From assembly GCF_003018255.1 (NCBI RefSeq), contig NZ_CP027440.1: a stretch of DNA of 64,000 nucleotides, one strand, 5' to 3'. Below the pieces are notes generated by a model. That model saw only the letters and a list, made by a program, of their open reading frames with translations. It was not told where the DNA came from and did not search any database. The position numbers and the translations under genes are program-made. Of this stretch, positions 1 to 54,885 are shown in pieces; within the stretch, counting starts at the first letter, position 1; every line of letters begins with the position of its first letter. Source of the DNA: Escherichia coli (GTDB lineage: Bacteria; Pseudomonadota; Gammaproteobacteria; Enterobacterales; Enterobacteriaceae).

Positions 1-512
1 TGTTTAATCTCCTGGCATTCTTCAGGAATACCCCCTTTTATTTCCCTGCCATAAGCGCCTACTTTAAACACCACGCACAGGGCATCACGGGAGAGCGACG
101 GGGTCCACCAGGAGTCCATGTTAAACATGGAGGGGATTCTCATTACCCCCAGCTTTTCACAGAGCCAGACAAGGAAATCAGGACGCTTTCTTAACTCGCG
201 TTCAGCGGCTTCAATCATTGCGGCAATCGCCGGTCCTTCAGGGCATGACTCATCAGGTCTGGCAATAAAGCACGGTCCGTCCCCGATAAAAGCCACATCA
301 TCGCGCTTACGCCAGCCCGCAGGCAGAGCACCAGAAAAATAAAACTCACTGATTACGTCCATGGCAAACGGCTTTAAGCGCAATCCGGCAGCGCCTGTAT
401 TTTTCAGTAATGCCCGAAGAATACTGTTGCGTAGCGGTAAAACAGTCTGTTGATATTTGGTGAAATATTTATTTGTCTGCACACGGTCTAATTTGAAATA
501 AAAATATGCCAT
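1..512 (-). CDS. hypothetical phage early protein, N-terminal ~170 codons only (3' end beyond window)
   Basis: Hand translation: ATG at 512-510 preceded by AAGGAACAGG Shine-Dalgarno; frame stays open to position 1. Not in the ORF track because it has no stop in the window. No family recognised. Confidence 0.45.
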   Translation of the reverse strand, partial: MAYFYFKLDRVQTNKYFTKYQQTVLPLRNSILRALLKNTGAAGLRLKPFAMDVISEFYFSGALPAGWRKRDDVAFIGDGPCFIARPDESCPEGPAIAAMIEAAERELRKRPDFLVWLCEKLGVMRIPSMFNMDSWWTPSLSRDALCVVFKVGAYGREIKGGIPEECQEIK

Positions 513-609
513 ATATCCTGTTCCTTATTTTCAGTTTACAGGCGCAGGCAGTCCCCTGACGCGAGCGCCATACTTAAAACGATGTGATATTTAAAGATTT
601 AATGCGGTG

Positions 610-1140
610 TTATTTATTCAGTCCGGCGTCCTGTTCAAAAGGCTCGACATAAAAACTTTCAGCGCCTTTATTCACCTTAATACCGGCAATGCCTTTCACT
701 GCATCCGGCTCCGCCAGGACCGCTTCCTTGTTCACTTCCTCTTTCGTGCGGATGAATCGCTCAAGCCCCATACGGCGCAGCATTTCAATCACACCTTCCA
801 CATCACGGCTGACGCTGCATGATGGATTTCCCAGCCGCCATGATACTGTTCCGGTGGTCAGATTGGCTGTTTTGGTTTTGCCGCCGTTCGTCAGCTCATC
901 GCGGTTGGTTTTGCACCAGTCCTGAATCCCCTTAAAAAGCACTTTGATTTCTTTTTTAAGGTTTTCAATCTGCGGCGTATAACGGGCGGTGATTTCTGCC
1001 ACTTCATCATTCATCGCCGTTTCCAGCCGCAGCGCCTCTCGCTGAATATCGCCCAGGGTACGGATATCGCGGCTGACTTCTTCGCGGGTCTGCGGTGCAG
1101 CCTCGGCTGCGGCCTTTAATTTTGTAACACGTTTAGCCAT
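610..1140 (-). CDS. gam: Gam-like host-nuclease inhibitor (Mu Gam family)
   Basis: 176 aa ORF; sequence (LETAMNDEVAEIT...NRDELTNGGKTKTANL...FIRTKEEVNKEA) closely parallels Mu Gam as recalled; AAGGA RBS upstream of ATG at 1140. Confidence 0.85.
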   Translation of the reverse strand: MAKRVTKLKAAAEAAPQTREEVSRDIRTLGDIQREALRLETAMNDEVAEITARYTPQIENLKKEIKVLFKGIQDWCKTNRDELTNGGKTKTANLTTGTVSWRLGNPSCSVSRDVEGVIEMLRRMGLERFIRTKEEVNKEAVLAEPDAVKGIAGIKVNKGAESFYVEPFEQDAGLNK

Positions 1141-1151
1141 TTTGTTTTTCC

Positions 1152-1445
1152 TTATTGCAGTGTGCCTGATGCTTTATGCACGCGGTGGCGTTTAATGATG
1201 GCATCCGCCCCAAAAGCCTGTACAGATGCCTGAAATTCCGCTGAGAGAAACTGAATAATTTCAGGACTGTGATACTGGAGAATACTTGCATAAACGTCAC
1301 AGAGTGACGTCGGCCTGTTATTCGTATCACGTTCTGTTTTTACATCCACACCAATCTTTTCATGCACTTCAACACAGTCATTGCCTGCCGGTTTTTCGTC
1401 ATGCGAAACATGCTTAAATTCAAAAATAACGCGTACTTTGCTCAT
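1152..1445 (-). CDS. hypothetical small protein (paralog A of a tandem pair)
   Basis: ORF track 1152..1472; likely start is the internal ATG at 1445 (MSKVRVIFEFKHV...) with AGGGG RBS; shares N-terminal motif and a C-terminal segment with the adjacent ORF. Confidence 0.5.
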   Translation of the reverse strand: MSKVRVIFEFKHVSHDEKPAGNDCVEVHEKIGVDVKTERDTNNRPTSLCDVYASILQYHSPEIIQFLSAEFQASVQAFGADAIIKRHRVHKASGTLQ

Positions 1446-1449
1446 GGAA

Positions 1450-1722
1450 TTACCCCTGCTGATTAAATTCATTACCTTTAATAACCCCGGAACGCATGCT
1501 CATATCTTTCATGAGCGCACTGGCTTTCATTGCCACAAGTTCAGCAAAGTCTCTGCTTTCCGCGAGCATAACCACCCCAAAAATCATGGCGGGTCCATCA
1601 CCTTTCTGCTTTATCCCGGTTGAACGTATGTCCAGACTTACCCCCATGCGCACTGTTCCATCAGCGTTTTTATGGATAACGTGCTCCTTGTATTCGAAAA
1701 TAATGCGTACGACTTTACTCAT
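1450..1722 (-). CDS. hypothetical small protein (paralog B of a tandem pair)
   Basis: 90 aa ORF starting MSKVVRIIFEYKEHV; GAGGA RBS; stop overlaps start of the next gene (4 bp), consistent with translational coupling in the early operon. Confidence 0.5.
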   Translation of the reverse strand: MSKVVRIIFEYKEHVIHKNADGTVRMGVSLDIRSTGIKQKGDGPAMIFGVVMLAESRDFAELVAMKASALMKDMSMRSGVIKGNEFNQQG

Positions 1723-2000
1723 CCTCTGGTCCTCGTTCTGTTTGGATAACTGACCCGGCGTCTGACCTCACGGCAGAACCGAATCATGGCATTAAAGGCT
1801 TCTTCCTCCGTCACCGCTTCCGGTATCCCCGGAACCAGTAACTGCTCCTGTTCATCACGTCCATGACGCGCCATAACCTCAATCACATGCCGTACCGTGG
1901 CAGGCTTTCCGGCAACTATCGGCAATGCACCTTCCGGCAGGACGTAACCAAACTCAATAAGACCACTCGACCACGCCCATGCAATGAGATTTTTTTTCAC
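1719..2000 (-). CDS. hypothetical small early protein (GTG start)
   Basis: 93 aa ORF in the tightly packed minus-strand operon; first codon is GTG; no recognisable family. Confidence 0.4.
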   Translation of the reverse strand: MKKNLIAWAWSSGLIEFGYVLPEGALPIVAGKPATVRHVIEVMARHGRDEQEQLLVPGIPEAVTEEEAFNAMIRFCREVRRRVSYPNRTRTRG

Positions 2001-2001
2001 C

Positions 2002-2256
2002 TCACACCTCCCAGTAAACCGTGCAGCCGCTGATGCGGGTGGCCTTCACACGGCGGCGCAGGCCGTTGGTCTGTATGGTGATTTCAATTTCACCGGTTCC
2101 CTGCACGTTGCCTACCGGCGGCGTGGTTTTCAGTGCAAAACGTTGCGGATAGCGCTTACTGCGTTCCAGTACCGCACCGGCAAGTTCGGTCAGACGGCGC
2201 GCGCTGTTCAGGGAGTCGAATAAATTCATTTTGTTACCGCAGGATTGCATATTCAT
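2002..2256 (-). CDS. hypothetical small early protein
   Basis: ORF track 2002..2268; ATG at 2256 has a GAGGTG RBS so is the preferred start; no recognisable family. Confidence 0.4.
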   Translation of the reverse strand: MNMQSCGNKMNLFDSLNSARRLTELAGAVLERSKRYPQRFALKTTPPVGNVQGTGEIEITIQTNGLRRRVKATRISGCTVYWEV

Positions 2257-2268
2257 ATAACACCTCAT

Positions 2269-2490
2269 TTAGCTGACTTGTTTCGCACCAACAGAACGGC
2301 ATATTCCGCTGTAAACGTCTGTCGCACCTTCGCGATCAAGTCCGGCAGATATCACCATTCGTGTGCGGTCATTAAATTCAAAAAGAAAATCGCCACATTC
2401 TTTATTTTCGGCCAGTGAAATCACCTTCACGTTATCGAAATTAACCAGGTAAAAGCGTCCGTAAATATCAGGAATATTAAATACCGCCAT
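2269..2490 (-). CDS. small early protein in the position of Mu kil (73-75 aa)
   Basis: ORF 2269..2496 immediately after the B homolog with a GTGA/TGA start-stop overlap; ATG at 2490 has an AGGTG RBS. Kil assignment is by position and size only. Confidence 0.4.
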   Translation of the reverse strand: MAVFNIPDIYGRFYLVNFDNVKVISLAENKECGDFLFEFNDRTRMVISAGLDREGATDVYSGICRSVGAKQVS

Positions 2491-2492
2491 AA

Positions 2493-3425
2493 TCACACCT
2501 GTGAGAGTAATTCAGGGTTGGTATAAACCTCTTTAAAGGCCGCATTAATATGTTTTTCTGTCAGCGCCGCGCCTTCACCGCTGGCGGTGAGCCACGCCTG
2601 GTTAAGCGTATGTGTCAGAACGCGTAACGCTCCCGGCTTTTCAGCGATAGCCTGCATGACGGCCAGCTCGGCCTCACCACTGATCCCCCACGCCCTGGCA
2701 ATGGCCAGCACATCCGCCTTTTTGGCCTTGCGAAGTTGTTTTGTACGGGCAAGACGGCTGAACAGGCGCGATAAATCATCAAAGGCGCGGCGTCCACCTT
2801 TAAACAATCCGCGCGGGTTACCAATAAGCACCATCCCGATCCCCGTGGCGTCCTGAATTGCCCGGAGTTGCTCCAGACCGTCAATACCAAGATGATCCGC
2901 CTCATCCACAATCACCAGTCCACGCGTTCCCATCAGGCGACGGCGGATGGCGCGGGATAATGCCCCTTTGTTCGCGCGGGTGTAATCAATCCCCAGCGCA
3001 TCGGCCAGCTCCAGCAGACACTCCGTGACGCTGGAGTGCGCGGGTGACAGGGTGATCATCCAGGTGTTTGGTTGCTCCTGGCAGTAATTACGGGCAGTGG
3101 CCGTTTTACCCACACCCGGTACGCCCACAATAACGTTAATACAGCCCATCAGACGAACCGCCTGAAACAGTGCGCGCAGCTCCTGGACTGTCTGCGTTTC
3201 CACAAACTGCGGCGGTTCCGGCAGTGCGCTTTGTTTATTCCAGTTCTCATACCAGGAACGCAGGGAAGCAGCCACAGCAGCGTTATCGCCTTTATATTTT
3301 CCCTTACGGAAAGCCGATAATGTGCCGTCGGAAATTCCCGCCTCTCTGGCGATGGCATACTGCGTCAGTACGCCGCCATCAATAAGTTCATCAATGGTCT
3401 TGATTACATCGTTAATATCAGTCAT
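2493..3425 (-). CDS. MuB-like transposition ATPase
   Basis: 310 aa; Walker A GVPGVGKT, and extended similarity to Mu B as recalled (PEPPQFVETQTV, LVIVDEADHL, KPGALR). Confidence 0.9.
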   Translation of the reverse strand: MTDINDVIKTIDELIDGGVLTQYAIAREAGISDGTLSAFRKGKYKGDNAAVAASLRSWYENWNKQSALPEPPQFVETQTVQELRALFQAVRLMGCINVIVGVPGVGKTATARNYCQEQPNTWMITLSPAHSSVTECLLELADALGIDYTRANKGALSRAIRRRLMGTRGLVIVDEADHLGIDGLEQLRAIQDATGIGMVLIGNPRGLFKGGRRAFDDLSRLFSRLARTKQLRKAKKADVLAIARAWGISGEAELAVMQAIAEKPGALRVLTHTLNQAWLTASGEGAALTEKHINAAFKEVYTNPELLSQV

Positions 3426-3496
3426 ATTATTAACCTCTCATTTGATACCTTGTTTAATCAAATAACCTGAGTCGCCGCTCGGGTTATTTTTTTATT

Positions 3497-5587
3497 TCAG
3501 GCCAGCGGGTCATTTTCTTTTAATTTCGCTTCCAGCAACTGCAATCCCCGCTGGAAATTACGCTCGTATTCTTCATCAGGTTCATCGTCAGCGACCGGTT
3601 GCTGAACGGTCACCGTATTACCCACAGGGCGGTATATGTTTTCCAGCCAGGGCTCCTGCGGCTTGTGCTCCAGCACGTTGACAACCTCATCCTCGGCATC
3701 ACGGATTTTTTCCTCTGCGCGTTTACGCATGCCTTTAAGGCGTTGCTGCTGTTTGTAGTATTCCGCGCTAACCGGGAAGGCTTCGCGTTTATTACCGTCC
3801 CATACCGCCTCGCAAATCACGCTGCCATCCAGGCGACGTACGGTAATTCGTTCGGCATCATGAATGTCATAGCTGATAAGCACCTTACGACCATGCTCGT
3901 CACGCAGCTCGGGCGCGTAGTAAATATTATTCAGCCAGCGTATTTCACAGCGTCTTACAGGGCGTTCCACCATCGGCCGGAACATATCCCGCAGCTCAAC
4001 ATCGGACAGCCATTCAATTTCCGTGTCCTCTTCCGCCAGGCGTTTTTTTCTGAACTCCGCCGGGCTGTAATGCTTGCCGTTCGGCTTCACCGGTAATTCA
4101 TCGTGCGGCCGGTTGTTGTACCACTCAACACCGTCACGAATGGCATCAATCAGTTCAGACCAGGACGGTAAATCACGCATCGCTGACTGCTGCCGGGCGT
4201 TCAGCCGTTTGCCCTGTTGCAGGGCAGTAAATGCCGAGCGTAAATCGCGGTTGGTTTTGCGTAACGTCTCGCGATCTGCACCTTTCCCGAAATAGGTGCG
4301 GTATTTACGGGCTATGCGCATCGGTAATGTGCGGTTAAGCCGTTCGATAATGCCTCGTCCCTGCGGATTACCGGCAATCCCGGTCGGGTGATTAATCCCC
4401 AGTCGCGGCAGTATCCCCACAACCTCCTTATCCAGGATGTCGGCGGTTTCCCCGGAGCCGTTATCCGAGTAATACAGAAACGGTTTGCCGTGATGGCGAA
4501 TGCCGTGCTGTATGGCACCGGCTACGGCGAAAACATTTTCAGCCAGGTCAAGGCTCCAGCCCACCACAAAGCGCGTGCCACCGTCGATAACAAAGGTCAC
4601 TTCCGGTGCAAATGGCCGACCGTGAACCGGGTGTGCGCATTTCAGCTTCATGCCGTGACCGTCACCAATCCAGACATAATTCACCGGCATTCTGGACCAG
4701 TCGCGGCGCGTGAATCCCTCAAGCTGGCGGTATTCACTGCCGGTCACCCGGCCTTTTTGTTTCACCACTTCCGGCAGTTTCTTCATTGCGCGGCGAATGG
4801 TGTCATAAGACGGCATGATATCGAGCATATAAGGCTCATCAGCGTGCCGGTGCTGCCATTCAGCGACAAAATCCTCGTAAGCCTCGGTCATTGGTCGGCC
4901 GTTTGACTGGCGATACTGCGCCAGAAATTCGGGCAGCCAGTTAATATCTTCAGCTTTTATTTCCTGGCGCTTACCCGGTGCCAGTAAAAGCAGGCGTTCA
5001 GCGGCGTTCTGCGCCTTGTTAAAGGCCGCAATCCAGCGTTTCAGCGTTATTTCACTCAACGCACGGCTGTTTCCCTTTTTGGCGTTCGCCGTCTCAACCA
5101 TTGCCACAATGCGCTCGTCCAGTTGCGAACGTGCCAGGTTGTCAACGATAAACCGGATAGCTTTCGCACAGCTGAAACCGGGTTGTTGCGCGACTTTCAT
5201 CACTTCGCTGACGATCGCAATTCGTGCATCAGCCACCTGGCGCTGGTTTTCAGTCAGGGCATTAAGGCGTTCAACCATCAGTTGTGGTGATCCGCGATAT
5301 GCCTCCACCGCATCAACCACGGCAGGCGAGCGTCTGGCCTTTGTCACCACCGGAGCCGGTGATTCATCAGCTTTTTGCGTCATCAGTTGAAGGGCATAAC
5401 GTTCACGCAATACTTGTTGCGCGCCAGAAGGCAAACAATCGATATTAAATTCGATTGCTTTTGTCCCCTTACGTTTGCGTAACATGGCTGCATTTCCCGC
5501 AGCTGCTTTTGTGAGTCGATGGCGAATGTTATGTTCCATCATTGGTAAATCAGGAAGACCAACACATTCTTTTGCTGTTACCCACAT
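3497..5587 (-). CDS. MuA-like DDE transposase
   Basis: 696 aa; N-terminus MWVTAKECVGLPDLP parallels Mu A MELWVSPKECANLPGLP; candidate catalytic D-D-E residues in WIGDGHG, YYSDNGSGE and GIIERLN; GGGGGA RBS. Confidence 0.9.
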   Translation of the reverse strand: MWVTAKECVGLPDLPMMEHNIRHRLTKAAAGNAAMLRKRKGTKAIEFNIDCLPSGAQQVLRERYALQLMTQKADESPAPVVTKARRSPAVVDAVEAYRGSPQLMVERLNALTENQRQVADARIAIVSEVMKVAQQPGFSCAKAIRFIVDNLARSQLDERIVAMVETANAKKGNSRALSEITLKRWIAAFNKAQNAAERLLLLAPGKRQEIKAEDINWLPEFLAQYRQSNGRPMTEAYEDFVAEWQHRHADEPYMLDIMPSYDTIRRAMKKLPEVVKQKGRVTGSEYRQLEGFTRRDWSRMPVNYVWIGDGHGMKLKCAHPVHGRPFAPEVTFVIDGGTRFVVGWSLDLAENVFAVAGAIQHGIRHHGKPFLYYSDNGSGETADILDKEVVGILPRLGINHPTGIAGNPQGRGIIERLNRTLPMRIARKYRTYFGKGADRETLRKTNRDLRSAFTALQQGKRLNARQQSAMRDLPSWSELIDAIRDGVEWYNNRPHDELPVKPNGKHYSPAEFRKKRLAEEDTEIEWLSDVELRDMFRPMVERPVRRCEIRWLNNIYYAPELRDEHGRKVLISYDIHDAERITVRRLDGSVICEAVWDGNKREAFPVSAEYYKQQQRLKGMRKRAEEKIRDAEDEVVNVLEHKPQEPWLENIYRPVGNTVTVQQPVADDEPDEEYERNFQRGLQLLEAKLKENDPLA

Positions 5588-5597
5588 ACATCCCCCA

Positions 5598-5864
5598 TCA
5601 AGCCACTTCTCTGGCGTCCACCTGGTATCTGCTGGGCCAGATTACAGCAGGTTCAACCCCTATTTTTTCGGCGATGGCGGCTTCGTATTTACGGCACTGG
5701 CGGTAAAACACATTGCGCATTGATCCGCTTTTTAATCCTAACTCCCTTTCCAGTTCAGGGAGGTCTGTGCCTTTGTTTTCAAGGGCTGCATATACCGCTT
5801 TAGCAGACCAGTCACACCCCTCTCGAACAAACAAATTATTCGATGCTTGTCTGGATACCCTCAT
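5598..5864 (-). CDS. Ner-like DNA-binding regulator
   Basis: 88 aa; C-terminal VIWPSRYQ and overall alignment to Mu Ner as recalled; AGAGGA RBS; first gene of the early operon. Confidence 0.8.
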   Translation of the reverse strand: MRVSRQASNNLFVREGCDWSAKAVYAALENKGTDLPELERELGLKSGSMRNVFYRQCRKYEAAIAEKIGVEPAVIWPSRYQVDAREVA

Positions 5865-6020
5865 TGTGTGATCCTCTCATGTTTACCTGAACCGATAATC
5901 AAAACCGGTTATCGATTTAGGTAAATCATAATCGCAAAATAATTCGATATCAACGGTTTTTTGCGAGCATATCGAAATTAAATGCGATGTCGATAATTTC
6001 TTTGTTTTATAGGGGGTTAT
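5865..6020. promoter_or_regulatory. divergent immunity/early control region (operators and promoters between ner and repressor)
   Basis: 156 bp AT-rich intergenic region between divergent genes with at least five copies of a CGATA/TATCG half-site (e.g. CGATAA at 5893 and 5991, TTATCG at 5909) in direct and inverted orientation. Confidence 0.55.
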
Positions 6021-6632
6021 ATGGATAAGGCAGAAAAAACCGTATCCAGTGCGGAACGGTTTATTGATATGGAAGGAATAAACCGATTTTCAGAACGCTT
6101 AGCTATGGCTATGGGAAACATGACAAACGTCGAACTGGCGACCCTTTGTGGACTATCTGAAGCCACAGTAAGAAATTACAGGAAGGGGAAAAACTTCCCT
6201 CCTTTGGATAAACTGGCCTTAATAGCTAAAGCCTGTAATTGTTCACTCGAATGGTTGGCCACAGGCAAGAACGAAGATGAATGCGGAAAAATCGAAAACA
6301 ATTGCGATTCAGGTTCGGGTATTGATCAGGCGCTTAGCTCTCTAAGCCCCCAAGAGAAGCAATTAATCCTTACATTCATCAGGCGAGAAGGTACTAATAA
6401 CCTTGTCAGGCTGGCAGCAATGAATACATCTACAATCAGCCAGGATGCGGTAGAAAGCATCATTGATGCCTTGCCATTACGTCCCGTACTAAAAAATGCA
6501 ATAAAGATAGGAATGGCGGGAAGTGAAGAAACAGACAAAGAGATTTTGCGCGTTATTGAGAAGTACAACTCGAGCAATAACGCCACCCAGGAATCAGGGG
6601 CAGTGACAGTAAAGAAAAATGTTGTTGGTTAA
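6021..6632 (+). CDS. prophage repressor, cI/XRE-type helix-turn-helix
   Basis: 203 aa; N-terminal HTH (ELATLCGLSEATVRNYRKGKNFPPLDKLALIAKACNCSLEWL); transcribed divergently from ner toward the prophage end as in Mu c; AGGGGG RBS. Not similar to Mu c itself. Confidence 0.7.
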   Translation: MDKAEKTVSSAERFIDMEGINRFSERLAMAMGNMTNVELATLCGLSEATVRNYRKGKNFPPLDKLALIAKACNCSLEWLATGKNEDECGKIENNCDSGSGIDQALSSLSPQEKQLILTFIRREGTNNLVRLAAMNTSTISQDAVESIIDALPLRPVLKNAIKIGMAGSEETDKEILRVIEKYNSSNNATQESGAVTVKKNVVG

Positions 6633-6890: not shown

Positions 6891-6912
6891 AGTTTTCCGT
6901 CCGAAGTATACA
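6891..6912. repeat. terminal transposase-binding site and prophage left end
   Basis: Reverse complement TGTATACTTCGGACGGAAAACT resembles the Mu terminal site (TGTAT...ACGAAAA) and ends in the TG/CA dinucleotide. Confidence 0.5.
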
Positions 6913-24951: not shown

Positions 24952-25027
24952 TGGTGCCCGGACTCGGAATCGAACCAAGGACACGGGGATTTTCAATCCC
25001 CTGCTCTACCGACTGAGCTATCCGGGC
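24952..25027 (-). tRNA. pheU: tRNA-Phe (GAA)
   Basis: 76 nt; reverse complement reads GCCCGGATAGCTCAGTCGGTAGAGCAGGGGATTGAAAATCCCC...GGGCACCA with a GAA anticodon. Confidence 0.95.
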
Positions 25028-38830: not shown

Positions 38831-38963
38831 TGCGATAGTCACAAAGGTAATAGTTGAAATTCCCCTGCCACCTGGCAAAATATCCGTTCAACCATCAGCT
38901 TTGCAGGACGACCTGCAAACGCCTCTTTTCACCGGGGACGGCCCCAATTCTCCGGAGCCTGAT

Positions 38964-54465: not shown

Positions 54466-54541
<76 letters not shown>

Positions 54542-54698
54542 AAATTTGAAAAGTGCTGCAAAGCACAGACCACCCAATCGCAGTATTTCGAATTGCGACA
54601 AGGCGGCAACTGAACGAATCCTTGGGAACTTACAAAAGTAAGTGACTAAGGTGAGTGAAGGCAGCCAAGGCAGTAGCGGTTCGAAAGACGAAGATTAA

Positions 54699-54774
<76 letters not shown>

Positions 54775-54809
54775 AAATTTGAAAGTGCTGTAAAGCACAG
54801 ACCACCCAA

Positions 54810-54885
<76 letters not shown>

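Follow-up and report, generated by a model that had tools for sequence, protein, structure and literature searches.

In the transposable phage Mu, the early operon carries, after the transposition gene B, a semi-essential region composed of kil, the small genes E5-E8, gam and the genes downstream of it. Expression of Mu kil kills the host or alters its morphology (see the references cited in the Mu GenBank note), and Mu Gam is a Ku-like DNA end-binding protein (PF07352). We analysed the corresponding block in a 64,000-nucleotide stretch of Escherichia coli DNA (contig NZ_CP027440.1), hereafter called the window, in which five small open reading frames (ORFs), O1 to O5, are packed between homologs of B and gam. 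The block agrees with the Mu region in position, in the packing of small genes, in early-operon membership and in dispensability, and we consider it probable that it forms the variable, accessory ('semi-essential') part of an early operon of a known kind, that of a Mu-like transposable prophage. Kil and gp7 are common to both regions; a homolog of Mu gp8/E7 is found in variant prophages only. Neither Mu gp6 nor gp9 has a detected counterpart in the window block and, conversely, neither O1 nor O3 could be matched to a gene of the Mu early region.

The block is thus an ordinary one and not a newly discovered system: the kind of region is known, the prophage is known, and the sequences are catalogued in hundreds of genomes. 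What is new is modest, namely the origin of a misannotation, a conserved pairing of O3 with Gam or DUF3164, and a link of O5, and probably of O4, to Mu gp7; the current understanding of Mu-like phages is unchanged. An earlier note, made from the DNA alone, had placed the five ORFs in the slot of Mu kil and the E genes between B and gam. This placement stands, although the genes concerned are E5-E8 and not E6-E9 as the note named them. Its further statement that no known family can be recognised among the five does not hold for O2 (Kil), for O5 (gp7/E6, to which O4 probably also belongs), or for O3, which belongs to a large and misleadingly named family.

Every coding gene in positions 1-5900 of the window lies on the minus strand, and the order of transcription is ner, A, B, O1, O2, O3, O4, O5, gam. 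Upstream, the block is flanked by B (2493-3425, minus strand), a MuB-type AAA+ transposition protein with 48% identity to Mu B (phrog_296, E = 7.7e-110), and downstream by a Mu Gam homolog (610-1140, minus strand) with 57% identity to Mu Gam over 175 amino acids (phrog_491, E = 3.5e-70). Between them lie, all on the minus strand, O1 (2269-2490, 73 amino acids), O2 (2002-2256, 84 amino acids from the PGAP start), O3 (1719-2000, 93 amino acids, GTG start), O4 (1450-1722, 90 amino acids) and O5 (1152-1445, 97 amino acids). The tight packing of five ORFs of 73-97 amino acids described in the earlier note is confirmed in its coordinates, and NCBI PGAP calls the same five genes in identical E. coli genomes. 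Only 2 nucleotides separate the B stop from the O1 ATG, 12 separate O1 from O2 and 1 separates O2 from O3; O3 and O4 overlap by 4 nucleotides (ATGA), and 4 and 11 nucleotides, respectively, separate O4 from O5 and O5 from gam. A Shine-Dalgarno-like motif precedes every start (AGGTG, GAGGTG, GGAGGTG, GAGGA, AGGGG). These sites and the gaps of -4 to 12 nucleotides are consistent with the translational coupling that had been proposed. No promoter-like or terminator-like site was found within the block on the coding strand, and Rfam and tRNA scans returned nothing there. The sole minus-strand promoter-like sites upstream of the block are sigma-70-like and lie at 5925-5993, before ner; this candidate early promoter corresponds in position to the early promoter Pe of Mu.

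Measured against diverged prophage variants, the ratio of nonsynonymous to synonymous substitution rates (dN/dS) is 0.15 for O1, 0.07-0.09 for O2, 0.21-0.22 for O3, 0.27-0.35 for O4 and 0.38-0.48 for O5, with B and gam at 0.03 as reference values. Since all five ratios are below 0.5, O1-O5 are real genes under purifying selection. Each of the five proteins also matches a PHROG over its full length, with E-values from 1e-40 to 1e-62. No transmembrane segment is present in any of them, nor is any as strongly acidic as DNA mimics are.

Several lines of evidence identify O2 as a Kil-family protein. Its conserved core starts at the ATG at 2229. In PHROG searches, O2 matches phrog_2679 ('Kil protein for bacterial septation inhibition') with an E-value of 6.6e-46 and phrog_2743, the family of Mu Kil itself, with an E-value of 9e-4; reciprocally, Mu Kil matches phrog_2679 (E = 9.3e-5). 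When the O2 and Mu Kil profiles are compared, the C-terminal 38 residues align with P = 2.4e-5. The Pfam family PF26843 (Kil_protein) is recorded on O2 homologs with 91% and 73% identity, and PGAP names O2 'Kil protein family'. A full-length alignment with Mu Kil (gp5) is collinear, with TxPP and G..R.V...R..GC...W motifs in common, and the two proteins are of similar size and of nearly the same isoelectric point (10.3 for O2, 10.2 for Mu Kil). Both are encoded in the early operon after B, although in the window O1 intervenes: O2 lies 237 nucleotides downstream of the B stop, with only O1 between. In the majority of the 54 related loci described below, a Kil-type gene is found at this place too. 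Pfam-A scans returned nothing for O2 or for any of the other four proteins, and the same Pfam copy scores nothing for authentic Mu Kil and appears to be without the Kil family; since Mu Kil itself goes unseen, these blank scans cover only older families. In newer, precomputed Pfam annotation, no family is recorded on homologs of O1, O3, O4 or O5. The Kil protein of phage lambda, which inhibits FtsZ (PMC3961180), is linked to O2 here by its name alone.

O5 matches phrog_2230 (E = 1.3e-40), and so does Mu gp7 over its full length, with an E-value of 0.009. A direct comparison of O5 with Mu gp7 was not significant, after which we enlarged the alignments with homologs from related loci. The O5 family then matched a gp7-like protein from one of these loci (L079) with P = 3.9e-7, this protein matched Mu gp7 with P = 1.1e-7, and the O5 family matched the combined Mu gp7 and L079 profile with P = 1.3e-6 (90% probability, 68 columns), while the lowest P-value among 30 column-shuffled controls was 0.07. 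On sequence grounds, O5 is a transitive homolog of Mu gp7/E6. It agrees with Mu gp7/E6 (phrog_10252) in length, in its predicted hairpin-plus-helix layout and in its position between kil and gam, and its homologs in Salmonella-type prophages and in another related locus (L110) fill the same slot. O4 matches phrog_4107 (E = 1.1e-61). It has in common with O5 the N-terminal motif MSKV(V)R(I)IFE(Y/F)K, and the two have a similar predicted topology, a long beta hairpin and a long helix, in a model region with a predicted local distance difference test score (pLDDT) of about 50-60. Profile comparison gives P = 2.3e-4 for O4 against the combined Mu gp7 and L079 profile, and 0.9-2.2e-3 when the O5 family is the partner. 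We regard O4 as a probable, divergent paralog of O5 and of Mu gp7/E6. In comparison with Mu, the window would hold two tandem copies of gp7, O4 and O5, the membership of O4 being the probable one.

Among the entries for these exact sequences on public contigs, O3 is the only one of the five proteins with a name other than hypothetical. It matches PHROG 1518, annotated as 'host nuclease inhibitor'. A word-indexed homolog search with O3 alone returned near-identical proteins only, and a profile search was needed to reach further; it retrieved 1,251 clusters, mostly of about 90 amino acids, from Salmonella, Pseudomonas, Burkholderia and others. Nearly all of the named clusters are called 'host nuclease inhibitor', and no listed cluster carries a Pfam domain. 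The family is spread over alpha-, beta-, gamma- and delta-proteobacteria. The phage proteins DMS3-12, JBD69 gp14 and BcepMigl gp54 (phrog_1518) are 43-50% identical to O3, have 15 invariant positions in common with it, including a VPGxPEA motif, and are encoded, like O3, in the early region near gam. In the Pseudomonas phages the O3-type gene lies downstream of gam, whereas in the window it lies upstream, with O4 and O5 between.

The origin of the name can be traced to the Pseudomonas phage D3112. Its annotated 266-amino-acid 'gam' (L004:4476-5276; AY394005 7567-8367) matches the window Gam over residues 1-161 and O3 over residues 176-248. In its sister phages DMS3 and JBD69, the Gam and O3 homologs are separate genes. 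Compared with the DNA of DMS3, the D3112 record has a 1-nucleotide deletion near the 3' end of gam (ccctg-acacc instead of ccctgaacacc), which shifts the gam frame into the next gene. Given this deletion, we rejected the D3112 protein as a true fusion of Gam and O3 domains. Most likely, the name 'host nuclease inhibitor' of the O3 family is an annotation carried over from the frameshifted D3112 entry. We found no experiment behind the name for the DMS3-12-type proteins. BLAST finds no similarity of O3 to the window Gam or to Mu Gam, and the structure model of O3 (pLDDT 77) does not show a Ku-like fold and has no fold match. Profile comparisons of O3 with Mu gp9, Mu gp6 and other families were not significant either. 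With Mu Gam, O3 has in common a family name and a neighbourhood, and nothing else: it is not a Gam-type nuclease inhibitor. The value of this result is mainly corrective: the label 'host nuclease inhibitor', borne by over 1,000 clusters, should not be taken to indicate what these proteins do.

Two further observations concern these names. PHROG 18351 (298 positions, also 'host nuclease inhibitor') appears to be built on fused ORFs of the D3112 kind, and over 1,000 clusters of small proteins unrelated to Gam have come to bear the name. Separately, JBD69 gp13 (L042:2116-2493), a 125-amino-acid gene between the Gam and O3 homologs, is annotated 'Mu Gam-like end protection'; it has no obvious resemblance to Gam, and its annotation may be another name spilled from a neighbouring gene.

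We mapped marker genes in 54 diverse viral loci carrying O3 homologs of 40-59% identity. A Mu-type transposase gene or a B gene is present in 47 of them. In 50 loci, either Gam (20 loci) or DUF3164 (30 loci) lies within 1.1 kb of O3, the gap being at most 100 nucleotides in 23 loci and at most 400 nucleotides in 40. In 36 loci O3 precedes Gam or DUF3164, typically in the order B-Kil-O3-Gam/DUF3164, and in 14 it directly follows one of them (the D3112 type). None of these markers, Gam and DUF3164 included, was detected in the remaining four loci, among them the Burkholderia podoviruses BcepMigl and KL4. From this synteny, we infer for O3 a role in the same early step as Gam or DUF3164, that is, the handling or protection of phage DNA ends. 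A single position of these early operons is taken by Gam in some loci and by DUF3164 in others, and the two were detected together in none of these loci (L066-L119). On this ground, DUF3164 may be a functional substitute for Gam.

The early region thus splits into a conserved core, B-Kil-O3-Gam/DUF3164, and the lineage-specific genes O1, O4 and O5. The GC content of the latter is 42-45% (42% for O1), against 52-56% for B, Kil, O3 and gam (55% for B). Hardly any relatives of O1, O4 or O5 exist in a collection of 1.84 billion representative proteins, and the three are confined to enterobacterial Mu-like prophages: a full HMMER search of this collection with the three proteins concatenated returned 19 hits, with four distant cluster representatives for O1 (43-55% identity) and one for O4 (55% identity). 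A 534-amino-acid repeat protein (P0025) among the 19 matches was judged spurious on account of its low-complexity repeats. Low GC content and narrow distribution together suggest that O1, O4 and O5 are later insertions into the conserved core.

Natural variants point to the same mosaic organisation. Thirteen E. coli genomes carry, between O1 and Kil, a 140-amino-acid protein homologous to Mu gp8/E7 (33% identity over 76 amino acids, E = 2e-8), and in these 13 genomes O3 is deleted save for its last 22 codons (L006:4295-4360). In one contig, residues 1-55 of O1 are joined in frame to residues 59-93 of O3, with the loss of Kil (L033:3863-4108), and another has a premature stop in O1 (L034:4056-4187). 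Since O1, Kil and O3 are deleted or truncated in such variants, these genes are dispensable for keeping the prophage. In prophages of the Salmonella type, there are O1-like, E7-like, Kil, O3-like and O5-like genes, after which comes DUF3164 instead of Gam. Between the window and the gp8/E7-carrying variant (L006), synonymous divergence (dS) amounts to 0.09 for B, 0.78 for O1, 0.50 for Kil, 0.36 for O4, 0.08 for O5 and 0.12 for gam. Such a pattern marks recombinational exchange within the block, and the roughly ten-fold change in dS along it implies breakpoints near the B/O1 and O4/O5 junctions.

A coherent scenario can be proposed for this accessory segment. Upon induction or infection, ner-A-B-O1-O2-O3-O4-O5-gam would most likely be transcribed as one message from the early promoter, and the small proteins would then be made through coupled translation. 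A conserved layer, O2 and O3, is common to many Mu-like phages. O2, by homology to Kil, would arrest or kill the host by disturbing its division or cell shape, while O3, a soluble protein encoded nearly always beside Gam or DUF3164, would act in the same early step, the handling or protection of phage DNA ends. The lineage-specific layer consists of the AT-rich insertions O1, O4 and O5; O5, and probably O4, descend from the Mu gp7/E6 family, and all three are most likely host-directed takeover proteins, dispensable to the phage.

Several points weigh against this reading. O2 resembles Mu Kil in the C-terminal half only, with 26% identity overall, and the link of O4 to gp7 is weak, with P-values of about 1e-3 to 2e-4. 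The closeness of O3 to Gam or DUF3164 could reflect a simple conservation of gene order in a short early operon and, in the window itself, O4 and O5 separate O3 from gam. The structure models are uninformative, that of O3 having no fold match in spite of its pLDDT of 77, and that of concatenated O1, O4 and O5 reaching a pLDDT of 48. Finally, we found no expression data for the five genes.

Could O3 be a dedicated partner of Gam and DUF3164? It might bind these proteins or the DNA ends and tune protection against RecBCD-type nucleases or end-sensing defences. The adjacency seen in 50 of the 54 loci survives the change in gene order, and in DMS3 the gam stop and the start of the O3-type gene are coupled (TGA-c-ATG). 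The family extends from alpha- to delta-proteobacteria and evolves at a moderate rate, with a dN/dS of about 0.2. However, the sole apparent fusion of Gam to O3 is a frameshift artefact, Mu has Gam and no O3 homolog was found in its early region, and four loci, BcepMigl and KL4 among them, carry O3 with no Gam or DUF3164 detected nearby. We regard a dedicated partner role as a tentative proposal, less probable than not by a good measure. For O3, we keep to the broader reading of a conserved early-operon gene that would act in the same step as Gam or DUF3164.

The block could also be an anti-defence cassette, as the earlier note proposed from its position, in which at least one of the small proteins, most plausibly O1, O4 or O5, would inhibit bacterial immunity early in infection. 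Its place in the early operon, the small size of its products and their variable presence among prophage variants would fit such a role, as would the atypical GC content and extremely narrow distribution of O1, O4 and O5, and the dN/dS of O4 and O5 (0.27-0.48), above that of core genes (0.03). Moreover, Mu-type Gam and GemA were found to render the related phage JBD30 sensitive to Gabija, in a 2025 preprint that is silent on the O3 homolog (PMC12407980); as Mu-type Gam exposes related phages to this defence system, a nearby counter-measure would make sense. Yet no similarity of the five proteins to a characterised protein, inhibitor or other, was found in PADLOC, NCBIfam or the PDB, with no dedicated anti-defence library among the collections searched, and no fold match was obtained either: PADLOC gave no match at E-values up to 1, NCBIfam none for four of the proteins and a chance-level match for O5 (E = 0.07), and PDB sequence searches nothing at E = 0.001 or below. 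None of the five is strongly acidic in the manner of DNA mimics, all dN/dS ratios are well below 1, and Mu itself carries a homolog of O5 for which no anti-defence phenotype is known. We hold an anti-defence cassette to be unlikely. The five are not all characterised Mu proteins with housekeeping roles either, since Kil is the only characterised Mu counterpart among them, and our literature search found no functional study of O1-O5 or of DMS3-12-type proteins.

A broader version unites both proposals: the O3 family would be a widely conserved partner of Gam or DUF3164, maybe shielding the end-bound genome from RecBCD-type or Gabija-type attack, and O1 and O4/O5 would be new inhibitors of host defence or physiology. 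This, too, seems to us rather doubtful. The division into core and insertions nevertheless sets priorities for the accessory segment, with O3 to be examined for an action on DNA ends, and O1, O4 and O5 for targets in the host or its defences.

O1 (WP_000257929) is a soluble protein with an alternative GTG start at 2496. It matches phrog_3375, annotated as of unknown function, with an E-value of 1.8e-46. Its AlphaFold2 layout, of low confidence and taken from the concatenated model, is of three strands and then a helix. When O1 was compared by profile with Mu gp8/E7 and the other families tested, nothing significant emerged. A PDB sequence match to an archaeal DNA polymerase small subunit was borderline (E = 0.01) and we judged it due to chance. 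Rather than the host, O1 might act on transposition itself, adjusting the activity of MuB or of the transpososome. O1-type genes stand directly after MuB in the loci of enterobacterial Mu-like prophages that we examined, where the context was available, the O1 start lies 2 nucleotides past the B stop, and the homologs conserve an N-terminal motif, PDIYGRxYLxNFDxVK. On the other hand, Mu, D3112 and most Mu-like phages lack O1, natural variants interrupt it with a premature stop, fuse it or delete it, and its AT-rich composition suggests a recent insertion. We consider a role in transposition quite improbable, and retain O1 among the lineage-specific accessory genes.

That some of the ORFs are decaying or spurious frames in a defective prophage, as the truncated and fused variants and the very few homologs of O4 and O5 might suggest, is hardly credible in view of the dN/dS values below 0.5, the Shine-Dalgarno sites, the full-length PHROG matches, the exact protein sequences of O1-O5, each present on at least 1,000 public contigs of E. 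coli and Shigella sonnei, and a five-gene layout that is intact in 226 complete genomes.

The prophage itself is widespread. The DNA of the block is 100% identical to that of chromosomes of E. coli O157:H7, O111 and other strains, enterohaemorrhagic E. coli (EHEC) included, and a prophage match was obtained in 231 of 5,426 complete E. coli genomes. There are up to four copies per genome, and one copy is on a plasmid (NZ_CP074995.1, 166 kb). Multiple copies and a plasmid copy are consistent with ongoing transposition, and this type of prophage appears still able to transpose. The same block was seen as a 'Mu-like phage' inserted inside two Stx-converting phages. Sp18, the Mu-like prophage of O157 Sakai in this group, was predicted to be intact (PMC2669165), and related Mu-like copies occupy differing chromosomal sites across strains (PMC2669165; PMC7430833). 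Based on the published description of Sp18, the window prophage resembles it. As this prophage type is common in EHEC, its killing and takeover genes could affect the fitness of strains upon induction.

Upstream of B, the early operon of the window prophage comprises the Mu-type transposase A gene (3497-5587, minus strand) and ner (5598-5864, minus strand), and a prophage repressor gene lies on the opposite strand (6021-6632, plus strand). The left end of the prophage is near position 6900. From about 6922, the annotation of an identical strain shows a pseudogene of about 15 kb for a giant adhesin similar to SiiEA/BapA, and the remainder of the window beyond the prophage left end is E. coli chromosome. 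Chromosomal RNA features outside the block include a tRNA-Phe gene (24952-25027), a guanidine-II riboswitch (38900-38946) and three tandem tRNA-Gly(GCC) genes (54466-54885).

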